This document shows positions 5,152 to 42,805 of a DNA stretch of 62,297 bases, piece by piece. How positions within the stretch are numbered: position 1 is the first letter of the stretch; the number at the start of each line of letters is the position of its first letter. The stretch comes from a virus (lineage: Duplodnaviria > Caudoviricetes), in IMG/VR virus record IMGVR_UViG_3300037493_001386, positions 1 to 62,297 of that record. One strand, given 5' to 3'. Below the pieces are notes generated by a model. That model was not told the origin of the DNA and did no database searches. It worked only from the letters and a program-made list of their open reading frames with translations. A program made the translations under genes and the position numbers.

Positions 5152-5455
5152 TTTTGCTGCTGGTATGTATCTGAGTCCATATATGGCAACAAAGCATAGG
5201 TCGCAAAATCCAATAAAAGGATATCCCGATTTATTTATTGCTTTACCTCGTGGAAAATTTGCTGGTCTATTTATTGAAATCAAAACTGAGAAAGCGAATC
5301 CATTTAAAAAGGATGGCACTTTGAAATCTAACGAGCATACAGAAAGACAAGCCGAAGTATTATCAATGCTGAATGAGGTTGGATACTATGCAGTATTTAC
5401 AAGTGGTGTTGACGAAACAATAAAAATTATAGAGAACTATATACATCAAAAATAA
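5072..5455 (+). CDS. VRR-NUC domain nuclease
   Basis: GYPDLFI...FIEIKT...RQ...L...GY motifs; homolog at 40511. Confidence 0.85.
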   Translation: MSHEVEIYKVIARYLSIKYPKVIFRFDFAAGMYLSPYMATKHRSQNPIKGYPDLFIALPRGKFAGLFIEIKTEKANPFKKDGTLKSNEHTERQAEVLSMLNEVGYYAVFTSGVDETIKIIENYIHQK

Positions 5456-5471
5456 TTTTCTATTTTAGCAA

Positions 5472-5581
5472 CATTCAGAGGTGGTATCCTGAATGCAACA
5501 AAAATATGTCGCCCTATGGTGACTGAGAGGCAACGATTAAAATCTGAGCCGATACCACCTCAGTCTTCATAGGGCATTTTT
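5472..5581 (+). ncRNA. Structured leader RNA upstream of the replication initiator (two hairpins plus loop-bulge pairing)
   Basis: Conserved at 43831-43943 with three compensatory base-pair changes; ends in a U tract. Confidence 0.75.
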
Positions 5582-5594
5582 AATTCTTATAACA

Positions 5595-6215
5595 ATGAAT
5601 AATCGGGACACTTGCATTTTTTATCGATCAATGTTTGAATCTATAAAGGAACTTCCAAAAGAGAATCAGGCAGAACTATACAATGCCATATTTGAATACT
5701 CTTTAGATTTTGTTGAACCTGAATTGGCTGGTCTATCAATGACAATATGGAGACTTATAAAGCCAGTACTGGAAAAAGGAAATACTAATTACATTAACGG
5801 AAGCAGACCGAAAGCGAAGCAGATAGTAAGCGAAACCGAAGCGAAACCGAAGCGAAGTAGAAGCAAAAGGCAAGCCTATAAGGATAAGGATAAGGATGTA
5901 GATATAGATAATGATATTATTGTTAAAGCACCATCTTTCAAGGCAATGACTAATGATGACTTAATAAATCAGATCAAACCATTTATAGAAAAGTACGGAA
6001 AGGACACTTGCAATGCTTTCTATTCATACTGGTCGGAACCACTTTCCAATGGTAGGATGAGATTGACAGAACAGAAGGCTTGGGATACCAGTAGAAGACT
6101 TTTCACTTGGAAACAGAGGGAGAAGCAGCCTGAATCTTCATATGTAAAAAAAGTACCAGTGCCTTTCAATCGCAGTAGTCAAGGGCAAACCTATGTAGGG
6201 GATGATGTGGTATAA
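5595..6215 (+). CDS. Replication initiator (DUF6291-like N-terminus, lambda O-like layout)
   Basis: FYRSMFESIKELP...LYNAIFEY N-domain, iteron-bearing linker, FYSYW..W..W C-domain; upstream of DnaB. Confidence 0.75.
   Translation: MNNRDTCIFYRSMFESIKELPKENQAELYNAIFEYSLDFVEPELAGLSMTIWRLIKPVLEKGNTNYINGSRPKAKQIVSETEAKPKRSRSKRQAYKDKDKDVDIDNDIIVKAPSFKAMTNDDLINQIKPFIEKYGKDTCNAFYSYWSEPLSNGRMRLTEQKAWDTSRRLFTWKQREKQPESSYVKKVPVPFNRSSQGQTYVGDDVV
5817..5897 (+). repeat. Putative origin: six AAGCnnA units at 11-bp period, then TAAGGA repeats
   Basis: Units at 5817, 5828, 5839, 5850, 5861 and 5872; period is not a multiple of 3; conserved in B. Confidence 0.7.
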
Positions 6216-7121: not shown

Positions 7122-7607
7122 ATGATCAAATCTAAAGTAAATCAATTGTTAAATGATGTATCACATATTTGCGATGTATCTGCAAAGTATTCTACCAAAG
7201 TAAAATCCAAAGACAGACCAGTAATTAAAACTGAAGTAGACATTTATAAATTAATGCATCATTGGTATGCAAATACAGAAATGTTTGAGCAAAGGGAAAT
7301 CTTTTCAGTAGTATTAATGACTCGGGCAAATCAGGTATTAGGAGTTGTAAATTGTGGCGAGGGAGCAGCAACTTCAACTATTGTAGATAAGCAATATATT
7401 GCAAGACTTGCAATTTTGGCAAATGCTCAAGCGGTTGTCTTATGCCACAATCATCCATCAGGTAATATAAAACCCAGCGATGCGGATATAAGGATAACTA
7501 AGGAAATAAAAGAAGCACTTAAGTTATTAGAAATAACATTACTGGACCATTTAATACTAACACAAGACAATGGATTTACTTCATTGGCAGCAGAAGGCTT
7601 AATTTAA
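7122..7607 (+). CDS. radC: RadC-like JAB domain protein (A only)
   Basis: QREIF...CHNHPSG..KPS.AD..IT...LLDHLIL signature. Confidence 0.9.
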   Translation: MIKSKVNQLLNDVSHICDVSAKYSTKVKSKDRPVIKTEVDIYKLMHHWYANTEMFEQREIFSVVLMTRANQVLGVVNCGEGAATSTIVDKQYIARLAILANAQAVVLCHNHPSGNIKPSDADIRITKEIKEALKLLEITLLDHLILTQDNGFTSLAAEGLI

Positions 7608-9759: not shown

Positions 9760-9981
9760 ATGAAAAAGCAAACAGCAGTTGAGTGGTTAGTTGATGCAAT
9801 ATTTAATGATGTTGATTTGAAAGATTCAATCTTAAAGTTAGCAATCAGTCAGGCGAAAGAAATGGAAAGAGAGCAAATAATTGAAGCATATAGAGATGGA
9901 AGAACAGACCAACAAACTCGTATTCCAAAGTTCTACAATCGAAGTTCTGCAATCTACTACACATCAACCTATGGAGAATAA
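9760..9981 (+). CDS. Hypothetical protein (QTAVEWL...EQIIEAY..G type)
   Basis: Pattern shared with 9448 and 39897. Confidence 0.7.
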   Translation: MKKQTAVEWLVDAIFNDVDLKDSILKLAISQAKEMEREQIIEAYRDGRTDQQTRIPKFYNRSSAIYYTSTYGE

Positions 9982-10354
9982 CCTACTACTTATACCTTGT
10001 GCAATTGAATCTGTTTCCACAAGGAGAGATAAGACATTAAAAGTAATTATAGGTACTCAGGAATTGCCACCATCAAAAGCAGCCGAACTATTAAACCAAT
10101 GGGCATCAGGTGTTGGAGTGATGGCATTCAAAGGTGAATCATTTAGTTACGATGATGAAGAATTGCTAAAATCAATTAAGATTGATGCAGAAGAAATGGG
10201 AAGTAAGACACCAAGCCAAAGGTTAAGGTCTTGCTTATATGTATTATTTGAGCGCAATCCAGAGGGTTACAGAGACTTTAATAGTTATTATGCTGCTATG
10301 ATGGACAAGTTTATAGATATGGTCAAGAAGCGGATAGATACCTACCAATTATAA
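9971..10354 (+). CDS. Conserved hypothetical protein
   Basis: Start at ATG 9971 by homology with 47912-48295; KTPSQRLR motif. Confidence 0.8.
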   Translation: MENNLLLIPCAIESVSTRRDKTLKVIIGTQELPPSKAAELLNQWASGVGVMAFKGESFSYDDEELLKSIKIDAEEMGSKTPSQRLRSCLYVLFERNPEGYRDFNSYYAAMMDKFIDMVKKRIDTYQL

Positions 10355-10373
10355 CATTAACTACATTTGCATT

Positions 10374-10964
10374 ATGTCAAGCATAAAAACAAAAAACGTA
10401 AAGATTAGCGATATTAAAATAAATCCTAATAATCCAAGACTTATTAAAGATGAGAAATTTAATAAGTTAGTGCATTCAATAAAAGAATTTCCTGAGATGT
10501 TGGCAATAAGACCAATCGTTGTAAACTCAGAAATGGTGGTTATTGGTGGCAATATGCGATTAAAGGCTTGTAAGGATGCTGGATTAAAGGAAGTGCCTAT
10601 AATCATTGCGGATAACCTAACGGAAGAACAACAGAAAGAATTTGTAATAAAAGATAATGTTGGATTTGGAGATTGGGACTGGCAAATTATTGCAGAGGAA
10701 TGGGGAACAGAATCACTGGAAGATTGGGGTTTAGATATACCTAACTTTGCCAATGATGAATTGTTAGAAGAATTTGATACCAAGGCATCAGATATTAATC
10801 TAACTCCAAAACCAACTGATGATGACTATTCAACATTTGAAATGGTTATGCTGCATCAAAATAAATTGCTGCTATTGGAAACATTAAATAAAATAAAAAA
10901 TAACTTCCTATTTGAAAAGCAAGAGGATTCATTAATGGAACTCGTAAGACAATACAATAAATAA
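10374..10964 (+). CDS. ParB/Srx-like N-terminal domain protein
   Basis: NPNNPR, L..SIKEF, RPIVV, IGGNMRLKA, IKDN motifs; TACATTTG promoter at 10362-10369. Confidence 0.85.
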   Translation: MSSIKTKNVKISDIKINPNNPRLIKDEKFNKLVHSIKEFPEMLAIRPIVVNSEMVVIGGNMRLKACKDAGLKEVPIIIADNLTEEQQKEFVIKDNVGFGDWDWQIIAEEWGTESLEDWGLDIPNFANDELLEEFDTKASDINLTPKPTDDDYSTFEMVMLHQNKLLLLETLNKIKNNFLFEKQEDSLMELVRQYNK

Positions 10965-10970
10965 AAACCT

Positions 10971-11765
10971 ATGAAGCAAGAGACACTTTCATTTATTAAT
11001 TTTATTAATCCCGATTCAGGTTTAATATTTAATGATGAGGAACACGATAAATATCCATTAAAATACTATAATGTAATTAATGGCGAAGGCATTGATGTAG
11101 ATGAAAATAAAAGTTACTATGGTTTCGTTTATTTAGGTGAGGCGGTGATCAAAATAAAAGACAATATTCAATCTATACTGCCAAAGGATTCTTACTTTTC
11201 GCATCACGGAGAATTTACTCTTTGTGGCAATTTCAAAGCGGTAATCATTGAGGTAATTACCAGTAAAGGAATATACCTAAAGGAACGATTTAAGGCAATG
11301 ACTGCCATCGGAGGTGTTGTAGAAGATACTGGAAGATTAAAATATATAGATGGATGTACTGATAGTCTATTAATACCACCAGTTAAAAAAGGTAATCCTT
11401 GTTTAAATCATTTGCATTTTCCAAAAGACATTCGACAGACACCTCATACTCACCCAAGCCATCGTGTTGGATTAGTAATTAGAGGGCAAGGAAAGTGCGT
11501 AACACCATTCGGAGATCTTCCATTAAATGAGGGATGCATATTTGTTATTAAAGAATATGACGGCCTTTTAAAAGCGGTTGGTTTGGATGGCAAAATGTAT
11601 GATGCTGGTACTCATAAATTTGATACTAATTTTAGCAGTATGGATGTGATAGCATTCCATCCTGATAGCGACTTTGGTCCTGAAGATGAATTCCATCCAA
11701 TGATTAATCGCACAATAGTAAATGGAATTTCTGCAAAAGACATTGATCAAATAAGAACTAAGTAA
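10971..11765 (+). CDS. Cupin-domain protein
   Basis: QTPHTHPSHRVGLVIRGQG and later HKF metal-binding cupin motifs. Confidence 0.75.
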   Translation: MKQETLSFINFINPDSGLIFNDEEHDKYPLKYYNVINGEGIDVDENKSYYGFVYLGEAVIKIKDNIQSILPKDSYFSHHGEFTLCGNFKAVIIEVITSKGIYLKERFKAMTAIGGVVEDTGRLKYIDGCTDSLLIPPVKKGNPCLNHLHFPKDIRQTPHTHPSHRVGLVIRGQGKCVTPFGDLPLNEGCIFVIKEYDGLLKAVGLDGKMYDAGTHKFDTNFSSMDVIAFHPDSDFGPEDEFHPMINRTIVNGISAKDIDQIRTK

Positions 11766-12940
11766 TGGGAGTAGTTAGAAAGAAAGAATACAAAGAGATT
11801 GATGTATATGAGGAAGCATTAAATCGCATCAGATATATTTACGATAGATTTGATAAAGTAGTAGTTTCATTTTCAGGAGGAAAGGATAGTACTGCCGTTT
11901 TAAATACTGCATTAATAGTTGCCAAAGAAAGAAATAGATTGCCATTGGATGTAGTATTCTTTGATGAAGAAGCAATACATCCACCAACTATTGATTATGT
12001 AAAAAGAGTAAGGGAAAATAAAGATATCAGAATGCATTGGTACTGCTTAGAATTTAAGCATCGAAATGCTTGTTCGAATGAGGAACCATTTTGGTATACT
12101 TGGGATAAAGAAAAGAAAGATTTGTGGGTTATGGAAATGCCTGAGTTTGCAATAACTGAACATCCTAAATTTATTAAGGGAATGAGTTTCCAAGAATTCT
12201 CCCCTTACCTATTTAATAGAACGGATGGCAGCGTTGCAATGCTTACTGGTATCAGAACACAAGAAAGCCTCAGAAGATACCAAGTGATCGCTAAAAAAAA
12301 GAATGATGCATTTATGAATTCAACCAGCGAGTCAGGGCAAAACCAATATAGATGCTTCCCTATTTACGATTGGAGTTCTGAGGATGTATGGTTGGCAGTT
12401 AAAAAATTTGGATGGGATTATAATACCACATACGATATATTTAATCAAACCAAATTAAATAATGATTTTCTGCATCAAAGAGTTTGTCCTCCATATGGAG
12501 AAGAACCATTAAGAGGATTATGGGTTTATGCGGAATGCTTCCCTGAGATGTGGCATAAAATGATTAGTAGAGTGCAAGGTGTTAGTACTGCTTGGAGATA
12601 TGGCAATACAGAACTATATTCTAATGCCAGTAAAAAACCTGATAATAAAACGTACAAAGAGTATTTAAATATTATACTGGATAGTTACGATTATGATAGT
12701 CAGCAAGATGTTAAGAAAACAGTTAATGGATATATCAGAAGACATCAGTCATTAACTAAGCAGAAAATACACGAGGTAGATTGCCATCCATTGAGTGGTG
12801 TTTCTTGGGAGTGGCTATGCAAAGTAACCATACGAGGAGATTTCAAAGGCAGACAGAGTAATATATTAAATACCAATGCCAATAATGTAAGGGAGAAATT
12901 AGGTATTACTTTGGAAGAAGCGGAAAGGATTTATAAATGA
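11765..12940 (+). CDS. ibrA: PAPS-reductase-family PP-loop protein, IbrA/YbdN (DUF3440)-like
   Basis: VSFSGGKDS, FFDEEA, GIRTQES, PIYDWSSEDVW, QRVCPPYG motifs. Confidence 0.85.
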   Translation: MGVVRKKEYKEIDVYEEALNRIRYIYDRFDKVVVSFSGGKDSTAVLNTALIVAKERNRLPLDVVFFDEEAIHPPTIDYVKRVRENKDIRMHWYCLEFKHRNACSNEEPFWYTWDKEKKDLWVMEMPEFAITEHPKFIKGMSFQEFSPYLFNRTDGSVAMLTGIRTQESLRRYQVIAKKKNDAFMNSTSESGQNQYRCFPIYDWSSEDVWLAVKKFGWDYNTTYDIFNQTKLNNDFLHQRVCPPYGEEPLRGLWVYAECFPEMWHKMISRVQGVSTAWRYGNTELYSNASKKPDNKTYKEYLNIILDSYDYDSQQDVKKTVNGYIRRHQSLTKQKIHEVDCHPLSGVSWEWLCKVTIRGDFKGRQSNILNTNANNVREKLGITLEEAERIYK

Positions 12941-13434
12941 AGATCAAAGAAGCAAAAATATTTATCAATAGTCAGCCGTTTACATTTGCCAAAAGTTATG
13001 CAGATACATTTCCGCACACCTATTTGCAAAGAGCAAAGACAACAGACGAAAATAAATTTGAGCAATTCATTTCATTAATACGAAAGGAAGGACTGGTATA
13101 TAATTTTTTTAAAAAGCAATACGTATATTTATTTATTGACGATTTTATTTATTGGGAAGTTGGCAGACCTATCAAGTGCATACAAGTATTAAATAGAGCC
13201 AGTATTCATTCACTAAATCAAAATAAGCAACATCTTGTTTCGCAGCATATAGCAGATACTTTATTAGCGAAACTTAATGATAGAGAAATATATTTAGATA
13301 CCTTGCTGAATAAAGAGATTAAATCCATTCAGGATATAAGGCAAATTAAGTTCCTGATGGATACCGAAAGAAGAATAAACGGAGGAGGTAAAAACATAAT
13401 TGATAACTATAAACAAGAAGTAAAATATGAATAA
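12937..13434 (+). CDS. Hypothetical protein within the IbrAB cassette
   Basis: Overlaps both neighbours; FAKSY...PHTY...YW motif; function unknown. Confidence 0.7.
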   Translation: MKIKEAKIFINSQPFTFAKSYADTFPHTYLQRAKTTDENKFEQFISLIRKEGLVYNFFKKQYVYLFIDDFIYWEVGRPIKCIQVLNRASIHSLNQNKQHLVSQHIADTLLAKLNDREIYLDTLLNKEIKSIQDIRQIKFLMDTERRINGGGKNIIDNYKQEVKYE

Positions 13435-13933
13435 GAAAGATCAGCCATTAAATGAAATCGTTTGGCGCAACAGAGAAGAACTAAAAGCAAATAATTACAA
13501 TCCTAATAAAGTTGCACCTCCTGAATTAAAACTATTAAAGGTTTCTATTATTGAAGATGGATGGACACAACCTATTGTAATAAATCCTGATATGACAATT
13601 GTTGATGGATTCCATAGATGGACGGTTTCGGGACATAAAGAAATATACCAGTTAACAGATGGACTTGTTCCAACCGTTATGATCAAACCGAAAGACATCA
13701 ACCAGCAACAGATGGCAACCATTCGACACAATCGTGCTCGAGGTACTCACGGAGTATTGGAGATGAGTAATATCGTAAATGATATGGTTAAGAATGGATT
13801 AAGTGGCGAAGAGATTATGAGTAGATTAATGATGGAAAAGGAAGAAGTAGTTAGATTATTATTTAGAGCGGGTATTCCAAAGAGTGAAGTCTTCAAAGAG
13901 AAAGATTTTAGCAAGGCTTGGTCACCTAAATAA
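13427..13933 (+). CDS. ibrB: IbrB/YbdM-like ParB/Srx-fold protein
   Basis: ANNYNPNKVAPPELKLL..SI.EDGWTQPIV, IVDGFHR, ATIRHNRARG.H. Confidence 0.9.
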   Translation: MNKKDQPLNEIVWRNREELKANNYNPNKVAPPELKLLKVSIIEDGWTQPIVINPDMTIVDGFHRWTVSGHKEIYQLTDGLVPTVMIKPKDINQQQMATIRHNRARGTHGVLEMSNIVNDMVKNGLSGEEIMSRLMMEKEEVVRLLFRAGIPKSEVFKEKDFSKAWSPK

Positions 13934-13953
13934 CAACATTAAAACAACGAAAA

Positions 13954-14259
13954 ATGGCTGGTAAAGGACAAGTAGAACCACGTTGGAAAAAAGGCGAAAG
14001 TGGTAATCCAAATGGAAGGCCTCGTAAGTTGCCTGAGTTGGACAAATTACTTGCTGATGTACTTGGCGAGGAGAAGGATGGAATAACGGCTGGAGAGGTC
14101 ATATTAAAGGCAATAAGGGCAAAGGCAGCAAAGGGCGATGTAAGAGCAGCCGAACTATTATTAGATAGAGCATATGGCAAACCAAAACAAAGTATTGAAA
14201 ACAATATATCATCACTTGAGCCAATGGTTATTATCAGGACCGAGAGAAAAGAAATGTAA
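13954..14259 (+). CDS. terS: Terminase small subunit (DUF5681-like)
   Basis: WKKGESGNPNGRP, GDVRAAELLLDRAYGKP; directly upstream of TerL. Confidence 0.8.
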   Translation: MAGKGQVEPRWKKGESGNPNGRPRKLPELDKLLADVLGEEKDGITAGEVILKAIRAKAAKGDVRAAELLLDRAYGKPKQSIENNISSLEPMVIIRTERKEM

Positions 14260-14284
14260 TATTATACCAGTTACATTTTGATTA

Positions 14285-15559
14285 ATGGCTTATACATTAA
14301 CAGAAACACAAACAATTGCATATGATTATGCCACCAATGGAGATAAAAGAGTTATCTTATTTGGTGGCGCAATTCGTGGCGGTAAAACATATTGGTTGCT
14401 GCTAACATTAACCTCATTATGTTTGGCATATCCAAATAGCAGATGGGTTGTAATTAGAAAAACACTACCTGATCTAAAACGTACAACATTCCCAACATTT
14501 AAATCTATAATGAATGATGGTGTTGGACAATACATAAAGAACTGGAATAGGGATAATGTAGTTACATTTAATAACAACAGCCAATTAATATTTATGGGCG
14601 AGAGTTACGATGATGATAAAGAATTAAATAGGTTTAGGGGATTAGAAATAAATGGTGCTGGATTAGATGAAGTCAACGAGTTACAAGAAGTAACCTTTTA
14701 CAAAGTTCAGGAACGTATTGGTTCTTGGAACAAAGCAGAAGGTCAGCCACCAATAATATGCTTGGCTACTTGCAATCCATCACAAAATTGGGTGAAGACA
14801 TTAATCTATGAAAGGTATAAGTATGGAACGCTTCCAAACAAATGGGCATTCATACCATCAAAGATTACCGACAATCCATATATACCTATTGAGTATCTTG
14901 AATCATTAAAAGAATTGCCACCTATTCAATATGCAAGATTTGTTGAAGGTGATTGGGATGTACTGGATAATGTAGTTAATCCATTCTTGTACGAATGGAA
15001 TGATGAAAAACATATTGATGATAGCATAGAACACAATCCAAATCTACCAACATTTATTAGTGTTGACTTTAATGTTAATCCATTATGCGCATTAATCATT
15101 CAACACGTTGGCAGCGACACACGAATACTGGATGAGATTAAAATAGAAAAGGGCTCAATAGAAGCATTCTGCGATGCCGTTGAGAATTATAATATACCAA
15201 GTGGCTTGATGCGAATAACTGGAGATGCGATGGGCAAAGGCAGTTCAATACAACAACGTGATAACTCTTCTGCATATACTCAAATCAAACGCAAATTTAA
15301 ATTGTCTGATAGTCAAATTATGATACCAGCCAATCCAAGAATATCTAATAGTCGGATAGATTCCAATTTAGCATTAAAAAAATTAAATATTAAAGTTAAT
15401 TCAATCAGGTGCAAAGGATTTATATTTGATGCAAAGCAAGTGCAATGCGATGCGGAAGGTTCGTTAATAAAAACAAATAGGAAAAACCTATCGGAACGTG
15501 CCGATTTTTTAGATTGTTTTCGTTACTTTGTCAATACTATTTTAAAAAGATACCTATGA
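14285..15559 (+). CDS. terL: Terminase large subunit
   Basis: GGAIRGGKT, LDEVNE Walker B, TCNP, DNPY, SVDFN nuclease motif, D.LDC.RY. Confidence 0.95.
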   Translation: MAYTLTETQTIAYDYATNGDKRVILFGGAIRGGKTYWLLLTLTSLCLAYPNSRWVVIRKTLPDLKRTTFPTFKSIMNDGVGQYIKNWNRDNVVTFNNNSQLIFMGESYDDDKELNRFRGLEINGAGLDEVNELQEVTFYKVQERIGSWNKAEGQPPIICLATCNPSQNWVKTLIYERYKYGTLPNKWAFIPSKITDNPYIPIEYLESLKELPPIQYARFVEGDWDVLDNVVNPFLYEWNDEKHIDDSIEHNPNLPTFISVDFNVNPLCALIIQHVGSDTRILDEIKIEKGSIEAFCDAVENYNIPSGLMRITGDAMGKGSSIQQRDNSSAYTQIKRKFKLSDSQIMIPANPRISNSRIDSNLALKKLNIKVNSIRCKGFIFDAKQVQCDAEGSLIKTNRKNLSERADFLDCFRYFVNTILKRYL

Positions 15560-16948: not shown

Positions 16949-17070
16949 TGACAATTGTTGAAGGTGATGTAGTGGCATACAATCAACTTATGAATGGAGA
17001 TGTTGATTTATTTTTAACTAAATTTGAGCAGTTTATAAATACTCAACAACGTGGCAACAGTTTACATTGA
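16765..17070 (+). CDS. -1 frameshift extension of the tail chaperone (GT-like)
   Basis: -1 frame open from the slippery site and conserved in B (51635-51928). Confidence 0.8.
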   Translation, partial: FFYTFGYRASNTLNVYVSRRLAEIMGIQRGATTQFNQSIEPLRFSPRYRATEATKRIKSQVMTIVEGDVVAYNQLMNGDVDLFLTKFEQFINTQQRGNSLH

Positions 17071-20000
17071 TTATGAAGCGAGAGCAGCATCGTTAAAAGC
17101 AGTAACCGATACCATTATTAATGCCAATAAACAAATTGGTGATAGTGCTGAAGTAGCAGCCAAAGAGGGAGCGGATGCCTATAAGTCAATGGGCAAAGCA
17201 ATGGGTGCTGCATTCTCATCGCAAGAGGTATCTAAGGCATTGAATAGTAACATTGCCAGTATAAATAAAAATCGTGATGCGCTAACTAAATTAACTGGTG
17301 AATCAATTAAGTTTGGTAAGGCAGCAATAACATTAGGCGGTCAAGTAAAGCAGAATGCATCTGAAGTATTAAAAGCAAAAGAGGCATTGGCAAAGTACCA
17401 ACAAACATTAAATGATACTGGTAAGGGAACAGATAATACAGAGAAGAAAACCCAGTCATTAAAAGGTAGATTGCGAGAATTAAAAGAACAATTATCCGCA
17501 CTTGAAACGGCTGGTCAAGAGGGATCAATGGCATTTGAAAAGTTAGCGGTTGAGGCTGGTAAACTTCAGGATCAAATAGGAGATACAACAGAACGAGTTA
17601 AAGTATTATCATCCGACACATTTAAGTTTGATGCTGCATTGGGTGCGGTTAAAGGAATTGCTGCTGGATTTTCAATAGCGCAAGGTGCTGCTGCTTTATT
17701 TGGTGAGGAGAATGAGGACTTAAATAAAACAATTGCAAAGACTCAGGGAGCATTAGCATTACTTTCAGGATTGCAAGAGATTGCAACATTAGTAACTGGT
17801 CAAGGCGCAACAAAGATTGCCTTACAGAATCTATTTATGAAAGATAAAATAGTCACTACTACTGCTGCTGCTGGTGCGGTTACAACATTAGCGGTTGCCG
17901 AAGAAGGTGCTGCAGTTGCAACATTGGCAACTAAGAAAAGTCTTGACCTATTAAAGATTGCGATTGCTGGAACTGGTATTGGATTATTAGTAATTGGATT
18001 AGGTGCATTGTATGCAATCTATCAAAGAAATTCAGAGGCCTCTAAGAAATTTCAAGAAGCATTAGATGGAACTAATGTTGCAATAGGCAATGCTAAAATA
18101 TTACTTAAAGAATATTCAAACGATCAAATTAATTTGAATAATCAAATCGAAGTTGCTGCTGGAAGAATGAAGCAAAGTGATGCAGATAAGGATAAAGTAA
18201 AAAGAGATTCTAATGCTAAATTTAAAACAGAATCAAAAGCATTATATGCATCGCAAGTTCAATTAGATAATCAAGTAATTGAATTGAATAATAAAATAAT
18301 GTTCCAAGAAGTAGAAAGGCAAAAGAATGGAGCATTGGGCGCAAAGGGTTCTGATGCAGCAATTATTGCCACAAGAAAAGAAATTGCAGTAATTCAAGAA
18401 AAGTACAAAGAAGCGCAGAAAGGAATTAATGATTTAAGAGAAGCAAATAAAAAGTCCGAAGGAGCGCAAATTAAACTGATTGATGATGCAGAAATAAAAA
18501 GATTAAAAGATGAAGCATCTGCAGCATACGATAAAGCAAAGCAGATATCAGATAAATTAATTCAAGATAGATTAAATGCAGAACTAAATGGTCTTAAATT
18601 AATTCAGGTAATTAATGGAGATTCATTTAAGAACAAAGAAGATATATTAAAAAAAGAAGCAGAAATCGAAAGGGCATCAGCAACTGCCAGTATCACTAAT
18701 AAACAATTAAGGGCATCAACACTACTACTGATTGATGCTAAATTGGCTCAGGATACAGAACAATTAAAACTGGATGAACAAAACAAAGTAATTGCTAATG
18801 AGGTTAAATTGATTGAAGCGAAAAAGGTATTAAATACTGCAACATTAGGTGATGAAATTAAACAAGCAGAACTATCATTTAATATTGAAAAGTCTAATCT
18901 TGAAGCAAAGATTAAATTAAATCAGGCATCATCTGCAGACCTTGAATTACTTAGTGCTAATAACGAAAAGAAGATTCAGGATATAAAGAACAGAGGTATA
19001 CAACAAGAGTATACTTTAAGAGTTCAGTCATTCGAACTAAGAAAGATGTTAGGCGCAACTACATTAGCAGAAGAACTAAGTTTAATTCGTGCAAGAGCAG
19101 AAGCGGAGTTAAAGGCAAATGAATTATCAAATAAAACATTGCCACAAAAGGAAGCGGATAGGAAAGCAATCATTGCCAAGACTGATAATGATATCACTCA
19201 GGCAAAAGCAGTAGAAGCAAACAAACGTATTGATATTGAGAATGCAGAGGCTGAGGCAGCGTTAATACTTGGAACTGCTACATATGATCAAAAGGTAAAA
19301 TTAATAGAAGACGAGGGTCTAAAACAGAAGAATTCACTTGATAAAAAACTATTAGGTGAGGAAGCATATAATGCAGCGGTCTTAAAGATTAATGCAGACA
19401 CTACTGCCAAACTAAAATTAGAGCAAGATGCAAGAGTACAAAGTGTATTTGCATTACTAAATGCTGCATCAGGTGTATTTCAGGAATTAAATGCTTTGGG
19501 TCAACAACAGACAGATGAAAGAATTGCTGGAGTAACGGCTGCAAGTGAGGTTGAACTAAAAGCAATTAATAATAGTACTGCGCTGGAAACTGAAAAAGCA
19601 AGACAAAGAACTGCGCTGGAGAAAAGAACACAAAGAATAATTCGTGAGGATAAAAGAAGGCAAGCGGAATCTGATAAAGCATTAGCATTATTTCAGGCAA
19701 TTGTTGGTAGTGCATCAGCGGTTGCATCTGCTAAAACATTACCATTAAAGATATTAATTGCGGCGGCTGGAGCAATTCAGATAGCAGCCATATTATCAAG
19801 ACCAATACCTAAGTTTGAAAAGGGAGGGGAGATAGGTGGCAAAAGACATAGTGAGGGAGGTACAATTGTAGAAGCAGAACAAGGAGAATATATCGTTAAT
19901 AGAAAGCAAACATCGGCACATAGAAAAGAATTAATGGCAATGAATCAATCATCTGAATCATTTAAAAAATTAATTAATGATAGGTATGTTCGACCAGCCA

Positions 20001-20176
20001 TTATGAATTATATGTTGAATTCAAAGAACAAGGAAATGGGGGTAAATGTAAATGCTACATTAAACTCAAAAACTATGGAGACTGAATTAAAAGGATTGCG
20101 AAAAGATATAAGAAATAGTTCTCAGGTATTTAGTAATAACAAAAATGATTCACGTTACTTATGGCACAAGAATTAA
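17051..20176 (+). CDS. Tape measure protein
   Basis: 1041 aa, Ala/Lys-rich helical with hydrophobic segments; C-terminal KFEKGG...GEYIV motif. Confidence 0.9.
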   Translation: MATVYIDYEARAASLKAVTDTIINANKQIGDSAEVAAKEGADAYKSMGKAMGAAFSSQEVSKALNSNIASINKNRDALTKLTGESIKFGKAAITLGGQVKQNASEVLKAKEALAKYQQTLNDTGKGTDNTEKKTQSLKGRLRELKEQLSALETAGQEGSMAFEKLAVEAGKLQDQIGDTTERVKVLSSDTFKFDAALGAVKGIAAGFSIAQGAAALFGEENEDLNKTIAKTQGALALLSGLQEIATLVTGQGATKIALQNLFMKDKIVTTTAAAGAVTTLAVAEEGAAVATLATKKSLDLLKIAIAGTGIGLLVIGLGALYAIYQRNSEASKKFQEALDGTNVAIGNAKILLKEYSNDQINLNNQIEVAAGRMKQSDADKDKVKRDSNAKFKTESKALYASQVQLDNQVIELNNKIMFQEVERQKNGALGAKGSDAAIIATRKEIAVIQEKYKEAQKGINDLREANKKSEGAQIKLIDDAEIKRLKDEASAAYDKAKQISDKLIQDRLNAELNGLKLIQVINGDSFKNKEDILKKEAEIERASATASITNKQLRASTLLLIDAKLAQDTEQLKLDEQNKVIANEVKLIEAKKVLNTATLGDEIKQAELSFNIEKSNLEAKIKLNQASSADLELLSANNEKKIQDIKNRGIQQEYTLRVQSFELRKMLGATTLAEELSLIRARAEAELKANELSNKTLPQKEADRKAIIAKTDNDITQAKAVEANKRIDIENAEAEAALILGTATYDQKVKLIEDEGLKQKNSLDKKLLGEEAYNAAVLKINADTTAKLKLEQDARVQSVFALLNAASGVFQELNALGQQQTDERIAGVTAASEVELKAINNSTALETEKARQRTALEKRTQRIIREDKRRQAESDKALALFQAIVGSASAVASAKTLPLKILIAAAGAIQIAAILSRPIPKFEKGGEIGGKRHSEGGTIVEAEQGEYIVNRKQTSAHRKELMAMNQSSESFKKLINDRYVRPAIMNYMLNSKNKEMGVNVNATLNSKTMETELKGLRKDIRNSSQVFSNNKNDSRYLWHKN

Positions 20177-22194
20177 AGTTTTTATTAGATGGTGAAGATA
20201 GAGGGCAACCTACTAACTATATTGATTTTGGTTTAAGTATAACAGAAGATACAACTATTCAGGCAAGGATTGTTTCTTTTGATAATCCTTTAATATTTAT
20301 TGGAGAATCATACGAATACATTTTTGGTAAAGTAATTAGTGGAGAACATTGCGATTTGATTAATGTTCAAGTGCAATACAAATGTGGTAATATTTGGAAG
20401 AAATTAGTTGATGGCTATTTTATAATTACAGAATCTGATTTTGATTTAGATCGGTGTTCAGTTCAAACAAAGTTATACGATGAATCATTTTCAACTAAAA
20501 TAAATAATAATAAATCTATTCCATTTTATTCCGACTCTAATATATCCAAGAATTTATTTCCAATTGTTGCGCCAATAGTTACACCATTAAGGATATTTAA
20601 ACCGTCGGATGGTACTTACTACCAAGATAGTTGTGGATGTATTAGTGTATACGATGCATTTAAACATTTAGTTAATTGTATGTCAGATGGATTAATAGAT
20701 TTTGATTCTAACTTTTTTAAGCCAGTATATAATAATCCACCATTTGTTCCGCAGAATTATGTTGTAACAAATGCAGAAGCATTAAGGAATAAATCATTTG
20801 TGCATACTCAATTAGTATTTGATAAGTTATTCATAGCATTAAATAAAAAATTAAGATTGGGAATGGGGTTTGAAAAACAACCTAATGGCAGACCACTATT
20901 AAGAATTGAAGATGCTGAATACTTTTTTGATTCAACACCATCAGTAACATTAGATGACCAGCCTGATATCACTATGCGATATGATACTGAAAGTTTAATT
21001 GCTGGTGTTGACTTTGGATCAAATCCTTTCTTTAATAAAGGGGATTGTAATAATGGCAGTACACCTTGTTCATTTTTGCAGACTGCATTCTTTGGATTTC
21101 GTGATGAATCATTCGGTATACTTGGTACTTGCAATACATCTAAAATGTTAAACCTTGTAAGTGATGATGTAATATTTGATACTAATATTATTGAGGATAT
21201 AATAGTCCATAATAATTTAGATTACGAATTAAATATGATTGTAATGTATTGTGATGGTAATAGAGCATTACCAGTAAGCACATCATTTACAGCAATACAA
21301 GGTGACCCATTGGGTGCTGGTAATACAATATATAATGAACAATTAATAAATGAAAGATGTTCTGCTAATTGGTTAGGCGGTTATCCAAATTCTTTGATTC
21401 AGTATATAGTTGGATTTGATCCAGCACTAACACCATTTAATGCAAGAATGCTTAATCTATTACCAAGTGACCAACAATGGACTATATATCCAGTACCTCC
21501 AAATTCTCCACAATACTATTTAGCAGAAGAAGGTGTTCCAATTAAATATTTAGCCGAGATAAGTGATCCCAATAACTTATTTGACGGACAGAAATATACC
21601 GTTCCATTTTCAGGAACATATACATTTACTGCGAAGATAGCATTGCAGTTATTATCAGATACACCAGTTAATAGATATACAAAAGCAATTATTAGGCAAT
21701 ATAATTCTATTGATGTTGAAATAGGTTCTTATAGCAGCGGAGTATTTAATGATACTGGATTAGGAAATATAAGAATAGCAGTAACTGCAACATTTCCTTG
21801 TAATGCTGGAGACTTCATTAGGGTAGATTTAATGGAGTATTATACAGATGCCAATCTTCACGTAGCAAGAGTTCAAGATATAATAACATATGCAATAGAT
21901 GAGGAAGGTGATTTTTTATACTCAGAGTTCTTTGGTAGTGGAGTGCCATTTGGTAATACAGATTTGCAGCCAGTTGATCCAAATCTAATTAGGAATGTAT
22001 TATACAGATTTGAACGGCCTCTGTCAATGGATGAGATTAATAGTATTATAAATGCCACAAGTAATCCAATTCTAATTGGTAGGTACGATGACTTATTAAG
22101 AACAATACCAGCGCATATTAAATCAATAAATATTGATAGTATTATAAAGCAATCTGCTAAATTTGATTTACGTTCAAATAAAATATTAATATGA
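20161..22194 (+). CDS. Tail tip/baseplate protein
   Basis: Follows the tape measure; LRIE motif; diverged homolog at 55070. Confidence 0.65.
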   Translation: MAQELKFLLDGEDRGQPTNYIDFGLSITEDTTIQARIVSFDNPLIFIGESYEYIFGKVISGEHCDLINVQVQYKCGNIWKKLVDGYFIITESDFDLDRCSVQTKLYDESFSTKINNNKSIPFYSDSNISKNLFPIVAPIVTPLRIFKPSDGTYYQDSCGCISVYDAFKHLVNCMSDGLIDFDSNFFKPVYNNPPFVPQNYVVTNAEALRNKSFVHTQLVFDKLFIALNKKLRLGMGFEKQPNGRPLLRIEDAEYFFDSTPSVTLDDQPDITMRYDTESLIAGVDFGSNPFFNKGDCNNGSTPCSFLQTAFFGFRDESFGILGTCNTSKMLNLVSDDVIFDTNIIEDIIVHNNLDYELNMIVMYCDGNRALPVSTSFTAIQGDPLGAGNTIYNEQLINERCSANWLGGYPNSLIQYIVGFDPALTPFNARMLNLLPSDQQWTIYPVPPNSPQYYLAEEGVPIKYLAEISDPNNLFDGQKYTVPFSGTYTFTAKIALQLLSDTPVNRYTKAIIRQYNSIDVEIGSYSSGVFNDTGLGNIRIAVTATFPCNAGDFIRVDLMEYYTDANLHVARVQDIITYAIDEEGDFLYSEFFGSGVPFGNTDLQPVDPNLIRNVLYRFERPLSMDEINSIINATSNPILIGRYDDLLRTIPAHIKSINIDSIIKQSAKFDLRSNKILI

Positions 22195-23858
22195 GTATTA
22201 CCTCAATACCAAACCAGCCAATATTATTTCATTCAGAAGATGAAATAATTGCACCTTGCGAAGAATGCGGAAGTTCTAATTATAATCAGTTAATTGATTT
22301 TAATGATAAGGTTTTCTTTCAATTAGAATCAACTGCTTGCGAACAATCCCCGATGATACCATTTGACACTTTATTGCAAGTTTGGTCAGATACAGAAGGT
22401 AATATTTGTGGTGATGGAGTATTGGCTGGTTCGTATGCACAATATTTATACATTGATTACTCATACGAATTATACTCCATAACATTTACAATTCTGAATA
22501 TTGAAGAAGGTACCTTAAATATATCAATGGATGGCAGCACAAACTATGAGTTATCATTGGCTGGAACTTATACATTATACTTTAATAATGTAAATACAAA
22601 TAATGATAGTTATGTTATATTATTAATTCAATCAAGTACATTCGTAGGTTGCTTTGATGCTAATAGTATTTTAGTAAAAGGTATTGCATCAAGAAACGAA
22701 ATAAAAGTTGGTATTGTTGATCCTATTACACTTCAACAATTAGATGTTATTTCTCCACAATACACAATAATAGATAATAAGATTATTGCTTCATTTGATT
22801 TCATAGATGTTGATGTTACTACTGGATGCTATCGACTTGCAATAGCAGATTTTTGTGAAAATACTTGCAGCCAGTTTAGAGTAATTAATAATCTTTTTAA
22901 TTTATACTTCAGTATTCCTTATGGTTGGAGCGCAGTAACTGGATTCGGTGCAACATATAGTTTTAATCAAAATCTATTTTGTGCGGAAACACCATATGAA
23001 GATGGGGAGATTACATTAGCATCTGTATCAGAATTATGCGAAGGGAAATTCTATTACATATCAATAGTAATTGAAAGCACAACAAATAATTTAATTTATG
23101 CTCAAATAGGTAATAGTACAATTCAGTTTCCATATAATGCAACGGGATACCAAACTATTGGTATAACTGCTGGAAGTCCATCATTAATTTATGGAATGAG
23201 GTTAACATTATTTATTCAGAATAATGGCAATGGACCGGGAAGTACTTGCATTTCAAAGGTGGATGTTCAGATTGATGATAGTAATATCCAATGGAATAAA
23301 TACTCAGATATAATTAGTTTGGGCGATTACAGCGATTCGTGCAACTATTATAAGATTGAGGGTTGCAATACACAAAACCAGTTTAATCTTGCGTTTAATG
23401 GCAGCGTATTTATGCCAATGGTTAGATTAGAGGGAAGACGAGTGAAACCACAATATGTAACTAATGCAAATACATTTAGATATGCATCAGGTAAATGGTC
23501 GGCAAACTATGTCAATAGAATAAAACAATGGACGTATCATTTTGGCAGACTGCCTGAATACATACTTGACTTTCTATCAACCATATTCTATTATGATAAT
23601 TGCTATGTGAATGGAGTATTAATGTTTCCACAAGATAACCAGTTCCCAACTATTGACTGGTCGGATGCTGATACATACTTAGGATCATTCAACATTGACT
23701 TAGTTGAAAAACAAAATAATGTTATTAAAGTACAATGTGCTGATTCTAATGCTACTTGTTTGCCATCGGTAATAGGATTAGACGAACCATATTTATTATC
23801 TGAGGATGGTATTATTTTAAATACACAAGATTCAATTAATTTGTATTCCGAAAATTAA
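22191..23858 (+). CDS. Tail protein with variable internal beta-rich domains
   Basis: Termini conserved with 57052-58719, middle divergent. Confidence 0.65.
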   Translation: MSITSIPNQPILFHSEDEIIAPCEECGSSNYNQLIDFNDKVFFQLESTACEQSPMIPFDTLLQVWSDTEGNICGDGVLAGSYAQYLYIDYSYELYSITFTILNIEEGTLNISMDGSTNYELSLAGTYTLYFNNVNTNNDSYVILLIQSSTFVGCFDANSILVKGIASRNEIKVGIVDPITLQQLDVISPQYTIIDNKIIASFDFIDVDVTTGCYRLAIADFCENTCSQFRVINNLFNLYFSIPYGWSAVTGFGATYSFNQNLFCAETPYEDGEITLASVSELCEGKFYYISIVIESTTNNLIYAQIGNSTIQFPYNATGYQTIGITAGSPSLIYGMRLTLFIQNNGNGPGSTCISKVDVQIDDSNIQWNKYSDIISLGDYSDSCNYYKIEGCNTQNQFNLAFNGSVFMPMVRLEGRRVKPQYVTNANTFRYASGKWSANYVNRIKQWTYHFGRLPEYILDFLSTIFYYDNCYVNGVLMFPQDNQFPTIDWSDADTYLGSFNIDLVEKQNNVIKVQCADSNATCLPSVIGLDEPYLLSEDGIILNTQDSINLYSEN

Positions 23859-23859
23859 T

Positions 23860-23943
23860 ATATTTGCTCATCTTTTTGCACCATCGTAGGTTTAACGGAA
23901 GCAACCTTTAATAGCGACTGAAACAACTTAAATCTATACTACA
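23860..23943 (+). promoter_or_regulatory. Promoter (TATATTTG) plus GTAGGT...CAACCT leader motif
   Basis: Motif also present before the MCP gene (30068) and the B tail-tube gene (58743). Confidence 0.6.
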
Positions 23944-24483
23944 ATGGGCTGCGCCTCATATTGCGAAACTGGACTTGAAACGCACGATTTAGTGCCTTGC
24001 GGTCAATATAAACTTGGCGGTGTTTCCGCTATTATTATCGGTGCTTGTGGAGCAGTGTTGGCTGTTCCAACTGATCCAATTGAAATTCAAGCATTATTAA
24101 CTTCAGGAGATGCAGTCTTGGTTGAAGATATCCGTTTTGCATTACCAGCGGGTTCTCCAATTCAGGTGGATTCACCAGTAGGTTGTGGCACTCAGATTCG
24201 TATCAACGAAGACCGAACTGCTACTCTTTACGATGCCAATGTTACCGACCAAAATAATTCATTTTATAATTCATTAAACTCTCAAAAGGTTGGATGGATT
24301 ATGGCTTATTTATGCGACTCAGGTAACGTAATCTATATCGACCCACCAGTTGGTATTACAACCTCTGCAAACTTTATTATTCCTGAGCAGAACAACGAAC
24401 TTCAGCGTTATGAAGTAACATTTAGTTGGAGACAAAAAGAGATTCCAACTCAGTTTGCTGCACCGGCTGGAATATTTAGTTAA
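23944..24483 (+). CDS. Probable major tail (tube) protein
   Basis: 179 aa, own promoter, GGV N-terminal motif, C-terminal YEVTFSW; highly conserved in B. Confidence 0.65.
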   Translation: MGCASYCETGLETHDLVPCGQYKLGGVSAIIIGACGAVLAVPTDPIEIQALLTSGDAVLVEDIRFALPAGSPIQVDSPVGCGTQIRINEDRTATLYDANVTDQNNSFYNSLNSQKVGWIMAYLCDSGNVIYIDPPVGITTSANFIIPEQNNELQRYEVTFSWRQKEIPTQFAAPAGIFS

Positions 24484-25436
24484 TGGAATTAGAAATTAAC
24501 ACTAACGATATTGCCACATCTTCTTCGGAGGGTGTGGTACTATTTGCATTTGGCAAGACTGCATACTATCAAGCAGCATATAATCTTGCATATTCAATTA
24601 AGTACCATTCACCATCAGTTAAGATTGCCCTATTTGTTGAAGACATCAATAAATGCAATAATTCTACTGGAGACATCAACACATATGTTGATTCAATAAA
24701 TCAAATCGAAAGTTCCGACCTTTATGTTAATGGGAAATTAGACCCAGCAATGTTAAAGGTGTCTATATATAAGTATCTGCCATTTAAAATTAATCTGTAT
24801 TTAGATGTTGATGCGGTATGCCTTAAAAACATTCAGCCATTAATAGATGATTTGATTAAAACAAAAAGGCACTACATCAGCCATTGCTTGGGTTATCATA
24901 CTATTGATTTAGGAAGAGAAATCCAATCAATGGTTTGGGCTTGGGCGGATGATATTTGGGAGCATTTTAAATTAGATCCTGATACAATACTACCATCTAT
25001 AAATAGCAGCATTCAATTCATTAAAAAATGTAAAAAGTCTAAAGACTTATTTGGAGTTCTTAGAATACTTTACACTACAAATCAATTGCCATTAAAAAAA
25101 TTAAAAAATAAATGGGGAGGTGGTCAACCTGATGAGTTGTATATGGATGTTGCTTTGGCAATGACAAAGTATGACCCATCTTATAAAAATGGAAATGTTA
25201 TTAGTGGAAGTAAATCGCAAAGTGGTTTCATTCACTTTGCATCAGTTCGTGGTTTGTCATTTCAGGAAGTAACGGATAACTATTATTTCCAATCATACTA
25301 TGGTGGTCGTAATTATACATCAAGATTCTATACTGAATGGCTTGAGAGACTTTTAAGAGTAATGATGAAGAAAGAAAACAAAACACATCAATTTCATATA
25401 GACCGAATCATTGGTAATAAATACGTGAACAAATGA
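24483..25436 (+). CDS. GT-A fold glycosyltransferase
   Basis: LAYSIK, LYLDVDAVCL (DxD), INSS and PDE motifs; homolog at 59340. Confidence 0.75.
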   Translation: MELEINTNDIATSSSEGVVLFAFGKTAYYQAAYNLAYSIKYHSPSVKIALFVEDINKCNNSTGDINTYVDSINQIESSDLYVNGKLDPAMLKVSIYKYLPFKINLYLDVDAVCLKNIQPLIDDLIKTKRHYISHCLGYHTIDLGREIQSMVWAWADDIWEHFKLDPDTILPSINSSIQFIKKCKKSKDLFGVLRILYTTNQLPLKKLKNKWGGGQPDELYMDVALAMTKYDPSYKNGNVISGSKSQSGFIHFASVRGLSFQEVTDNYYFQSYYGGRNYTSRFYTEWLERLLRVMMKKENKTHQFHIDRIIGNKYVNK

Positions 25437-26035: not shown

Positions 26036-26042
26036 TAAACCT

Positions 26043-26123
26043 ATGAAAACTACATACTGCCGTTCAAAGTCTTGTGGCTCGCACATTATTAATTCAACTA
26101 CATCAACTAAAATCGTTGCGTAA
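26043..26123 (+). CDS. Conserved 26-aa microprotein MKTTYCRSKSCGSHIINSTTSTKIVA
   Basis: Homolog at 60894-60974 with many synonymous changes; TAATG coupling to the portal gene. Confidence 0.8.
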   Translation: MKTTYCRSKSCGSHIINSTTSTKIVA

Positions 26124-37082: not shown

Positions 37083-37235
37083 ATGAAAAGCCAACAAATT
37101 GCCAATTACATTATGAATCTTTCTAAATCAGTAGGTAAAGATTTAAACTACGCATTATCAATTGTTGAATGGTATTCAGCAACAGACAAGCAAGACAAAG
37201 AAGTTAAATTAATCCTAAATCAAATCTGGAATTAA
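37083..37235 (+). CDS. Small early protein (50 aa) spanning the junction repeat
   Basis: ATG 37083 after the promoter; its 3' part equals window positions 1-106. Confidence 0.65.
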   Translation: MKSQQIANYIMNLSKSVGKDLNYALSIVEWYSATDKQDKEVKLILNQIWN

Positions 37236-37256: not shown

Positions 37257-37301
37257 GACCTCACTATATTTTCATTTAATCAATCTCTAAATTTAATCAC
37301 A

Positions 37302-42800: not shown

Positions 42801-42805
42801 TAACT

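Follow-up and report, generated by a model that had tools for sequence, protein, structure and literature searches.

A ParB-bicupin-IbrA-IbrB cassette next to the terminase genes of a tailed phage is a candidate DNA-modification module

What role do five tightly packed genes play that stand directly ahead of the terminase genes of a tailed phage and combine an IbrA-type PP-loop enzyme with a predicted bicupin and two ParB-type proteins? The locus lies in the IMG/VR virus record IMGVR_UViG_3300037493_001386 (Duplodnaviria; Caudoviricetes). The window, by which we mean the whole stretch of DNA analysed, is the entire record, a single contig of 62,297 bases, and self-comparison divides it into two collinear, related phage genomes, A (1-~37129) and B (37130-62297). 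In genome A, the cassette (g1 to g5) occupies a slot between a conserved upstream gene, g0, and the genes for the small (terS) and large (terL) terminase subunits. We lean towards the view that this IbrA/IbrB-type module modifies DNA with the assistance of ParB, probably after replication, a reading that draws on genomic context and predicted folds. The locus comprises the following open reading frames (ORFs), with lengths in amino acids (aa):

9881..10354, + strand: g0, 157 aa, the conserved left flank of the slot, homologous to B 47911-48295
10374-10964, + strand: g1, ParB-type protein, 196 aa, ParB_N at residues 7-95 (2.9e-10)
10971-11765, + strand: g2, bicupin by predicted fold, 264 aa, weak cupin match (AraC_binding, 7e-4)
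11765-12940, + strand: g3, IbrA-type PP-loop enzyme, 391 aa, PAPS_reduct and DUF3440, phrog_2302
12937-13434, + strand: g4, optional accessory, 165 aa, no Pfam or PHROG family
13427-13933, + strand: g5, IbrB-type ParB/Srx protein, 168 aa, phrog_2159 (1e-63)
13954-14259, + strand: terS, DUF5681 type (1e-17), the right flank of the slot
14285-15559, + strand: terL, Terminase_6N, phrog_979

The cassette genes are co-directional, with intergenic spacings of +6, -1, -4, and -8 bases. An initial annotation, made from the sequence of the window, had described a tightly coupled ParB/cupin/IbrA/unknown/IbrB operon just ahead of terS, and both parts of that description hold: the ORFs and their family matches bear out the five-gene content, and the spacings of +6 to -8 bases, with terS beginning at 13954, bear out the coupling. 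Other parts of it did not survive, namely a promoter of the cassette's own and its replacement by a single gene in genome B, and a statement about GATC and GGCC sites stands only as counts.

The closest relatives of this phage show what else the slot can carry. Among the best 80 of 171 terL relatives in IMG/VR (72-79% identity), a search for the bicupin, IbrA, and IbrB found none (0/80). We counted slot arrangements in the 65 relatives that have at least 2.5 kilobases (kb) upstream of terL: a g1-type ParB followed by an A-type terS occurs in 25/65 loci, a B-type terS in 18/65, an A-type terS only in 17/65, and g0 plus terS in 5/65. The flanks of the slot are orthologous to those of A (69-74% identity for g0 and 75-87% for terS). 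ORFs within the slot were clustered by blastp, and one representative per cluster was searched against Pfam or PHROG, which gave the following cargo for the 25 loci with a g1-type ParB:

N6_N4 DNA methylase fused to ParB, 6/25
Tet_JBP dioxygenase, 6/25 (once with a TAGT glycosyltransferase, once with an FkbM-type methyltransferase)
TAGT glycosyltransferase alone, 2/25
C5 cytosine methylase, 3/25
Mom, 1/25
DpdA-like protein (phrog_887, 1.3e-43) with QueC, QueD, QueE, and FolE, 1/25 (locus L133)
ABC-type ATPase with GNAT, 3/25
262-aa protein without known function, 3/25

Recognised DNA-modification enzymes are thus present in 19 of the 25 slots, exactly where A has bicupin-IbrA-g4-IbrB. Because the slot is filled by known DNA-modifying enzymes in the closest relatives, the cassette most likely marks phage DNA in an uncharacterised way. 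The same cargo supports the general reading of the initial annotation, an ATP-dependent DNA modification encoded beside packaging genes.

A second line of evidence comes from g1, which consists of a nucleotide-binding head (residues ~1-125) and a 71-aa tail (126-196) without a family. Its profile matches PDB chains of chromosomal ParB, Spo0J, and Noc over positions 2-89 only and other ParB-type chains up to position 135; no DNA-binding domain or helix-turn-helix (HTH) was detected, as judged from sequence profiles only. The head matches every one of the 19 unfused ParBs from relatives whose slots have different cargo, including those beside Tet_JBP (median identity 67%, range 59-75%), and is less similar to 62 ParBs of other bicupin-IbrAB loci (median 58%). 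The tail shows the reverse: it matches 0/19 of the former and 59/62 of the latter (median 51%), and single-linkage clustering splits the ParB tails by cargo type. Since head and tail matches differ between the two ParB sets, the head tracks the phage backbone and the tail tracks the cargo. The notion that these ParBs are companions of modification enzymes, which the initial annotation had raised for ParB-N genes next to terS, is strengthened by the relatives' slots and by this cargo-covarying tail.

The same ParB head also stands beside the less familiar cargo. An ABC-type ATPase and a GNAT protein, separate or fused, accompany it in L110 (7443-9005), L111, and L138 (5512-7073), and the 262-aa protein does so in L119, L120, and L127 (5030-6519); both are further candidates for DNA-modifying cargo. 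Six loci (L117 at 5397-5948, L123, L126, L129, L140, and L142) have a NUMOD4 plus HNH_3 homing-type endonuclease gene between terS and terL.

Several characterised systems resemble parts of this arrangement. The available text of a 2026 study (PMC13229309) describes a subclass of phage thymine dioxygenases that needs a neighbouring ParB, exemplified by 5mYOX176/ParB176; the ParB has a nucleotide-binding head and a C-terminal domain without a DNA-binding domain, acts on double-stranded DNA (dsDNA), and is relatively cognate-specific. g1 has the architecture given there for ParB176, a head plus a C-terminal part and no DNA-binding domain in sequence profiles, and the ParB plus Tet_JBP arrangement is itself found in the slot of this phage's relatives. 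Where 5mYOX176/ParB176 has a 2-oxoglutarate (2OG) dioxygenase, the phage of genome A has a PP-loop enzyme, a bicupin, and a second ParB, and PAPS-reductase-type partners occur nowhere in the main text of PMC13229309, as distinct from its supplementary datasets. In the DpdA/DpdB system for 7-deazaguanine, a ParB-like ATPase likewise works with a DNA-modifying enzyme, according to the portion of PMC12839542 at hand, and L133 has a ParB with its DpdA-like, QueC/D/E, and FolE genes in the slot; unlike DpdA/DpdB, the cassette of A has no tRNA-guanine transglycosylase (TGT)-like or Que genes. QueC matches IbrA with an E-value of 0.006 over the P-loop region only, and IbrA belongs to a PP-loop clade other than QueC. 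Phage ParB-methyltransferase fusions (phrog_498) match g1 with their N-terminal ParB part (1.8e-30), and such fusions are those found in 6/25 slots; unlike in these, the ParB of A is encoded as an independent protein that ends in a tail of its own, and none of its cargo enzymes is a methyltransferase.

The closest known counterpart is the IbrA/IbrB pair of E. coli and many phages (K-12 paralogues YbdN/YbdM; PHROG 2302 plus 2159), which has the same core of a PAPS_reduct plus DUF3440 protein beside a ParB/Srx-type protein. Both gene-level hallmarks of that pair are present in A, the PAPS_reduct plus DUF3440 protein and the adjacent ParB/Srx partner. In contrast to IbrA/IbrB elsewhere, the pair here sits inside a larger conserved unit with the g1 ParB, the bicupin, and variable slots. 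Literature searches returned no IbrAB biochemistry, although 'IbrA' as a search term is swamped by unrelated acronyms. The IbrA/IbrB pair itself is already known; what is new here is the slot equivalence with known modification enzymes and the cargo-tracking ParB tail.

How far does the cassette extend as a unit? A scan of IMG/VR with a bicupin profile found 289 relatives, of which we examined the best 80. IbrA lies downstream of the bicupin in 80/80 of these loci, and a g1-type ParB lies directly upstream of it in 78/80, the two exceptions having only 36 and 117 bases of upstream sequence. IbrB is present in 71/80, the remaining nine being too short to reach its position; in 26/80 the gene after IbrB is an A-type terS. 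A set anchored on IbrA (20 IMG/VR loci, 39-70% identity to g3) has IbrB directly after IbrA in 20/20 and the bicupin directly 5' of IbrA in 12/20, with too little upstream sequence in three loci and other content in five. The conserved core is therefore ParB-bicupin-IbrA-IbrB, with g4 optional, and this conservation counts in favour of the DNA-modification reading. The cassette is also found with other terL families. IbrA relatives occur in 223 of 50,697 GenBank phage records, identity to IbrA of cultured phages is <40%, and the cassette DNA has a single 140-base match to GenBank phages. Elsewhere the pair is found beside antirepressors (E. coli phage PhiR5_2), behind the genes for lysis (S. 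thermophilus phage CHPC877), or with its gene order reversed (FPSV-F7); because these pairs sit elsewhere, terminase adjacency is not a trait of the IbrAB family.

Additional genes enter the core at recurrent positions. In 22 loci an insert of 0.65-1.3 kb separates the bicupin from IbrA. In 14/14 ORFs tested it encodes a second PAPS_reduct protein, which is small and keeps the SGGKDS/G loop intact; a second ORF of the insert encodes a class-II glutamine amidotransferase starting with MCGIWG (3/3 tested). Longer, fused versions of this PAPS_reduct protein were also sought; none scored, which is weak evidence. In nine loci, IbrA and IbrB are ~0.6 kb apart; ORFs extracted from five of them encode proteins of 188-205 aa, two of the four scanned score as PD-(D/E)XK, and the one run against PHROGs matches an exonuclease (phrog_298, 1.1e-36). 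An SDR-family gene lies between g1 and the bicupin in two loci, and elsewhere among the IbrA loci the pair is accompanied by a sodium:solute symporter, an NMT1/THI5-like protein, or a 2OG oxygenase. Beside one IbrAB clade, GGACT (gamma-glutamyl cyclotransferase-like) and Amidoligase_2 genes lie on the opposite strand (L007/L011, 7772-9335).

In genome A the position between IbrA and IbrB is taken by g4, which is found there in 17/80 bicupin-anchored loci and 0/20 IbrA-anchored loci; against the latter, the 165-aa insertion is peculiar to the phage of genome A. g4 has 578 relatives by exhaustive phmmer search; its N-terminal domain of ~90 aa, which matches no family, is followed by a C-terminal extension. 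In the relatives scanned, the N-terminal domain is fused to class-I S-adenosylmethionine (SAM) methyltransferases in 5/15 and to ParB_N in 1/15, and sequences of nine relatives include solitary versions of 89-104 aa. This domain (window 12937-13200), which has no Pfam or PHROG family, is common in phage-sized proteins; in P0136, P0140, P0141, P0149, P0151, and P0182, SAM methyltransferases are fused on either side of it, with one ParB_N fusion. A search of the ESM Atlas with g4 gave no usable match, and the Atlas model is poor (predicted local distance difference test (pLDDT) 0.40).

The predicted structures of the two enzymes and the profile of g5 indicate what the core may do. g3 matches PAPS_reduct (PF01507, 3.1e-16, residues 32-224) and DUF3440 (PF11922, 5.5e-11, residues 237-319), both above cut-offs, as well as phrog_2302 at 4e-92. 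It contains the SGGxDS P-loop of PP-loop ATP pyrophosphatases (S37-G38-G39-K40-D41-S42); the segment SFSGGKDST is invariant in alignments of 10 and six sequences, and in one of 28 sequences G38 is only nearly invariant. The g3 sequence alone had no match in PDB, and its profile gave P-loop matches only (LarE, CysD). The AlphaFold model (pLDDT 75.7) predicts the conserved loops 168-180, 230-253, and 274-287 to be disordered. Its closest Foldseek match is the 3'-phosphoadenosine 5'-phosphosulfate (PAPS) domain of human flavin adenine dinucleotide (FAD) synthase, followed by adenosine 5'-phosphosulfate (APS)/PAPS reductases, CysD, and flavin mononucleotide (FMN) adenylyltransferase, with TtuA, TilS, and LarE lower; the DUF3440 part is helical in the model and without a structural match. 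IbrA thus has an intact PP-loop and, as modelled, the fold of the PAPS-reductase/CysD/FMN-adenylyltransferase clade.

The AlphaFold2 model of g2 (pLDDT 93) has two beta-barrels of the cupin type. Its Foldseek matches are the bicupins 1sfn, 1sef, 4e2q (ureidoglycine aminohydrolase), YxaG, BacB, and AerE, with template-modelling (TM) scores of ~0.5-0.6 and E-values down to 3e-10. H159, H161, and H215 are invariant across 23 sequences, as are H230, D232, D234, and H242, and the His cluster lies in the C-terminal barrel. The predicted fold makes g2 a bicupin, and its conserved His triad a candidate metal site. Its profile had no match in PDB, none of its 1863 relatives in a large protein collection is named, and it has no match in the 50,697 GenBank phage records. 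In g5, the motifs DGFHRW and HNRARG are invariant, and its profile matches ParB/Spo0J/Noc over head and HTH (positions 14-152 against residues 36-172 of 4umk, 7.9e-6), so the protein probably has an HTH of the ParB type.

For a DNA-modification module of this composition we envisage the following course. IbrB would bind DNA and position IbrA, which with ATP would adenylate a target oxygen, either a base carbonyl or carboxyl or a phosphate, and a nucleophile would then displace adenosine monophosphate (AMP). Adenylation is modelled on the clade of IbrA, whose members act on sulfate, on FMN phosphate, and, in DndC, on DNA. The bicupin could then catalyse a further, metal-dependent reaction that acts on the intermediate or on the incoming group, in line with the donor-tailoring cupin suggested in the initial annotation; g1 may be an activator or loader acting on dsDNA through its cargo-specific tail, as ParB176 is for its thymine dioxygenase, and g4 an optional accessory. 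The second PP-loop protein, the class-II amidotransferase, and the PD-(D/E)XK or exonuclease-like inserts fit an adenylate-then-substitute chemistry and an action on DNA. A bolder form of the proposal, which we put forward tentatively, is that within this phage lineage one conserved ParB head serves as a universal loader whose exchangeable tails recruit differing DNA-modifying enzymes, and that bicupin-IbrA-IbrB carries out a novel ATP-driven DNA modification in which a base oxygen or phosphate is adenylated and a nucleophile displaces AMP. If so, ammonia could be the nucleophile in the variants with the second PP-loop protein and the class-II amidotransferase, yielding an aminated base or a phosphoramidate-type linkage.

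A number of points count against DNA modification. The cargo in 6/25 slots is no known modification enzyme, the equivalence of the slots is a contextual argument, and membership in the cargo clusters rests on blastp, with Pfam applied to representatives only. Recombination break-points alone could yield the head and tail pattern of g1. The IbrAB pairs of other phages lie away from the terminase and have neither g1 nor the bicupin, and the SDR, sodium:solute symporter, and NMT1/THI5-like neighbours point to small molecules. A modified base is not visible from sequence, and to our knowledge activation of prophage genes is the sole published IbrAB phenotype.

The avoidance of restriction-type palindromes belongs on the same side. 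A and B each shun short palindromes very strongly, but not the same ones, and in A the strongly avoided ones are CATG, CTAG, AGCT, and CGCG (observed/expected counts):

CATG: A 0/134; B 26/112
CTAG: A 0/59; B 3/97
AGCT: A 3/78
CGCG: A 0/14
GATC: A 65/129; B 0/88
GGCC: A 9/39; B 0/8.8

At least one strongly avoided 4-mer palindrome is found in 73 of 100 cassette-bearing loci, so that any mark made by the cassette gives no general protection, and broad relief from restriction-site avoidance, which we considered as an effect of the cassette, is not seen. The mean number of strongly avoided palindromes is 1.52 in the 100 cassette loci and 2.98 in 80 cassette-less ones, a difference that is not interpretable because the sets differ in lineage and length. 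The mark, if there is one, may be sequence-specific or serve another purpose, and in its available text PMC13229309 likewise considers such possibilities for its enzymes. The initial annotation had remarked that A retains GATC and GGCC, known phosphorothioation motifs in some Dnd systems; this is right as counts against zero in B, but both sites are still under-represented in A. A link of these sites to the cassette falls away, since eight cassette-less relatives (L149, L152, L155, L163, L165, L167, L168, and L178) also keep GATC (observed/expected ~0.8-1.0) with CATG near zero, like A. Because they share this pattern, the retained GATC of A reflects the host environment or other genes rather than the cassette. 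The relatives show several distinct avoidance patterns, which suggests differing host restriction repertoires.

Among the alternatives, a role in small-molecule or nucleotide metabolism fares best, although we regard it as rather unlikely. The cassette would make, for example, a nucleotide derivative directed against host defence or carry out a step of host takeover, and the ParBs would be NTP-binding or regulatory (NTP, nucleoside triphosphate) rather than DNA-targeting. The nearest structural relatives of IbrA (FMN adenylyltransferase, CysD, and APS/PAPS reductases) all act on small molecules, the relatives of the bicupin are small-molecule enzymes, and some loci have SDR, sodium:solute symporter, NMT1/THI5-like, 2OG oxygenase, amidoligase, or GGACT genes. 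These metabolic neighbours discriminate poorly, however, because a donor-making pathway is compatible with DNA hypermodification. Moreover, two ParB-type proteins are kept with the enzymes, IbrB matches the ParB HTH region, the slot holds DNA-modifying enzymes in 19/25 relatives, and a nuclease-like insert occurs between IbrA and IbrB.

Control of transcription is less probable still. IbrB would be a ParB-type activator or anti-silencer with IbrA as its cofactor, switching on the late packaging operon. In E. coli, ibrAB reportedly activate prophage genes, and GenBank phage records label the pair 'co-activators of prophage gene expression'. The consulted part of PMC4541368 cites the E. coli story second-hand and leaves the function of IbrA and IbrB in Flavobacterium phages unassigned, and the paralogous K-12 ybdNM genes are under YbdO, a LysR repressor, according to an excerpt of PMC9068703. 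The ParB-like head and HTH of IbrB and the position of the cassette immediately before terS-terL would suit such a regulator. A regulator needs no intact PP-loop enzyme, metal bicupin, second PP-loop protein, or amidotransferase, however, and the same late genes serve the closest relatives, which have no cassette; a DNA mark could also bring about the gene activation in E. coli indirectly.

Modification of tRNA is common among PP-loop enzymes, and IbrA might act like TilS, TtcA, or TtuA on host or phage tRNA. We consider this quite improbable: TtuA and TilS are indeed among the structural matches of IbrA, but the PAPS-reductase clade outranks them, a tRNA-binding domain was not detected, and the ParB partners and the slot point to DNA.

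Phosphorothioation of the Dnd/Ssp kind, with sulfur supplied by a host cysteine desulfurase, was the direction in which the initial annotation leaned, and we now hold it to be very improbable. g3 belongs to the same PP-loop clade as DndC and has a weak, local match to the DndC model TIGR03183 (residues 152-218, 2.9e-9), C94, C103, and C241 are conserved in its close clade, and the pairing of IbrA with IbrB recalls that of the PP-loop ATP pyrophosphatase DndC with the ParB-superfamily protein DndB, as given in the available sections of PMC10853773. According to those sections, three Cys of DndC coordinate a 4Fe-4S cluster and the protein also has a Cys dyad; neither DUF3440 nor a bicupin is described there as a Dnd part. 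The TIGR03183 match reaches 36.3 bits against a cut-off of 290.4. Conservation of C94, C103, and C240/241 stops at the close clade: a six-sequence alignment of the IbrA family has no Cys kept across it and no Cys dyad, and the clade Cys are missing in PhiR5_2, CHPC877, and FPSV-F7. No DndA or other desulfurase, DndD, DndE, or SspB/C-like protein was found among the cassette genes and 40 further ORFs of A and B (the structural region 17051-28033 lies outside the scan), nor any Dnd/Ssp partner gene in the surveyed IbrA and bicupin neighbourhoods, and the GATC sites are not linked to the cassette.

A CysH role of g3 in sulfate assimilation was also considered and is not supported. All three CysH/APS-reductase models score far under their cut-offs (TIGR02057 16.3 versus 254.2 bits, TIGR00434 16.5 versus 165.1, and TIGR02055 24.7 versus 235.3). 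The motif ECG[LI]H, which we take to be the C-terminal catalytic Cys motif of CysH, is absent from the g3 translation, in which DUF3440 stands where the CysH C-terminus would be. Phosphorothioation and sulfate assimilation are both unlikely because the model scores are low, the Cys are not kept, and Dnd partners were not found.

Least probable of all is a packaging accessory, in which the ParBs and IbrA would help TerS and TerL recognise or cut the packaging site: terS does come right after the cassette, 26 of the bicupin loci have an A-type terS behind IbrB, and the terS of A is swapped along with the cassette relative to B, but the cassette is missing from relatives that share this terS (75-87%) and terL, it occurs with other terL families, IbrAB pairs are found far from terminases, and the coupling to packaging that the initial annotation had envisaged is neither shown nor needed.

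Comparison of the two genomes of the window places the cassette in a variable setting. A and B share 70-80% DNA identity, B is incomplete and cut at its end, and bases 1-167 recur at 37130-37299 with 94.7% identity; the joining of A and B may have arisen in assembly, from relatives that co-occur, or be a genuine tandem. B lacks the cassette, and A 10355-14308 (cassette plus terS) corresponds to B 48296-49155, which holds two ORFs:

48301-48687, + strand: 128-aa ORF, without a family in a Pfam search
48689-49135, + strand: 148-aa terS (phrog_309 terminase small subunit, 2.3e-36), of a different family from the terS of A

The initial annotation was thus right that B has no cassette, but the position is taken by two ORFs rather than one unrelated gene, and terS is swapped too. 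Nor does its promoter hold up. The gap between the upstream gene and g1 is 19 bases, and a search of it for a sigma-70-like site found none. The word TACATTTG at 10362-10369 fits the Bacteroidota -7 consensus. The motif TAnnTTTG is found 87 times in the window against 92.7 expected. As this is chance level and the gap is without a sigma-70-like site, a promoter of the cassette's own is unsupported. g0, the left flank, has no family in Pfam or PHROG. The nearest terL matches of A in cultured phages are <32% identical, their sources including Flavobacterium, Polaribacter, and Bacteroides phages.

Further differences were seen between genomes or loci that share a contig. B has an insertion relative to A at 41433-43819 that encodes an SNF2/DEAD-type helicase (455 aa) and an N6_N4 DNA methylase (337 aa); the methylase is present in B where A has none, and the IbrAB cassette in A where B has none. 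One 52-kb IMG/VR contig also has two terL loci, L150 and L166, whose ParB-side cargo differs, being a C5 methylase in one and Tet_JBP in the other. Elsewhere in A, a RadC-like JAB domain protein (7122-7607) lies ahead of the DnaB helicase, and a 189-aa protein with a HisKA-like phospho-acceptor domain (35501-36070) lies near the end of the genome.

IbrA and IbrB are common in phages, prophages, and enterobacterial chromosomes and have carried a placeholder name for two decades; the slot and the ParB tail now provide a context in which an IbrA/IbrB function becomes testable. If the cassette does modify DNA, it would represent a new class of phage DNA-modification enzyme that joins a PP-loop adenylating enzyme to a bicupin, and the principle of ParB as an activator, recently shown for one dioxygenase family, would become that of a general plug-in system. 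New DNA marks are of practical interest as epigenetic tools and for understanding how phages escape restriction. Should the bolder proposal hold, its adenylation chemistry included, the IbrA/IbrB (YbdN/YbdM) family would at last have a biochemical function.

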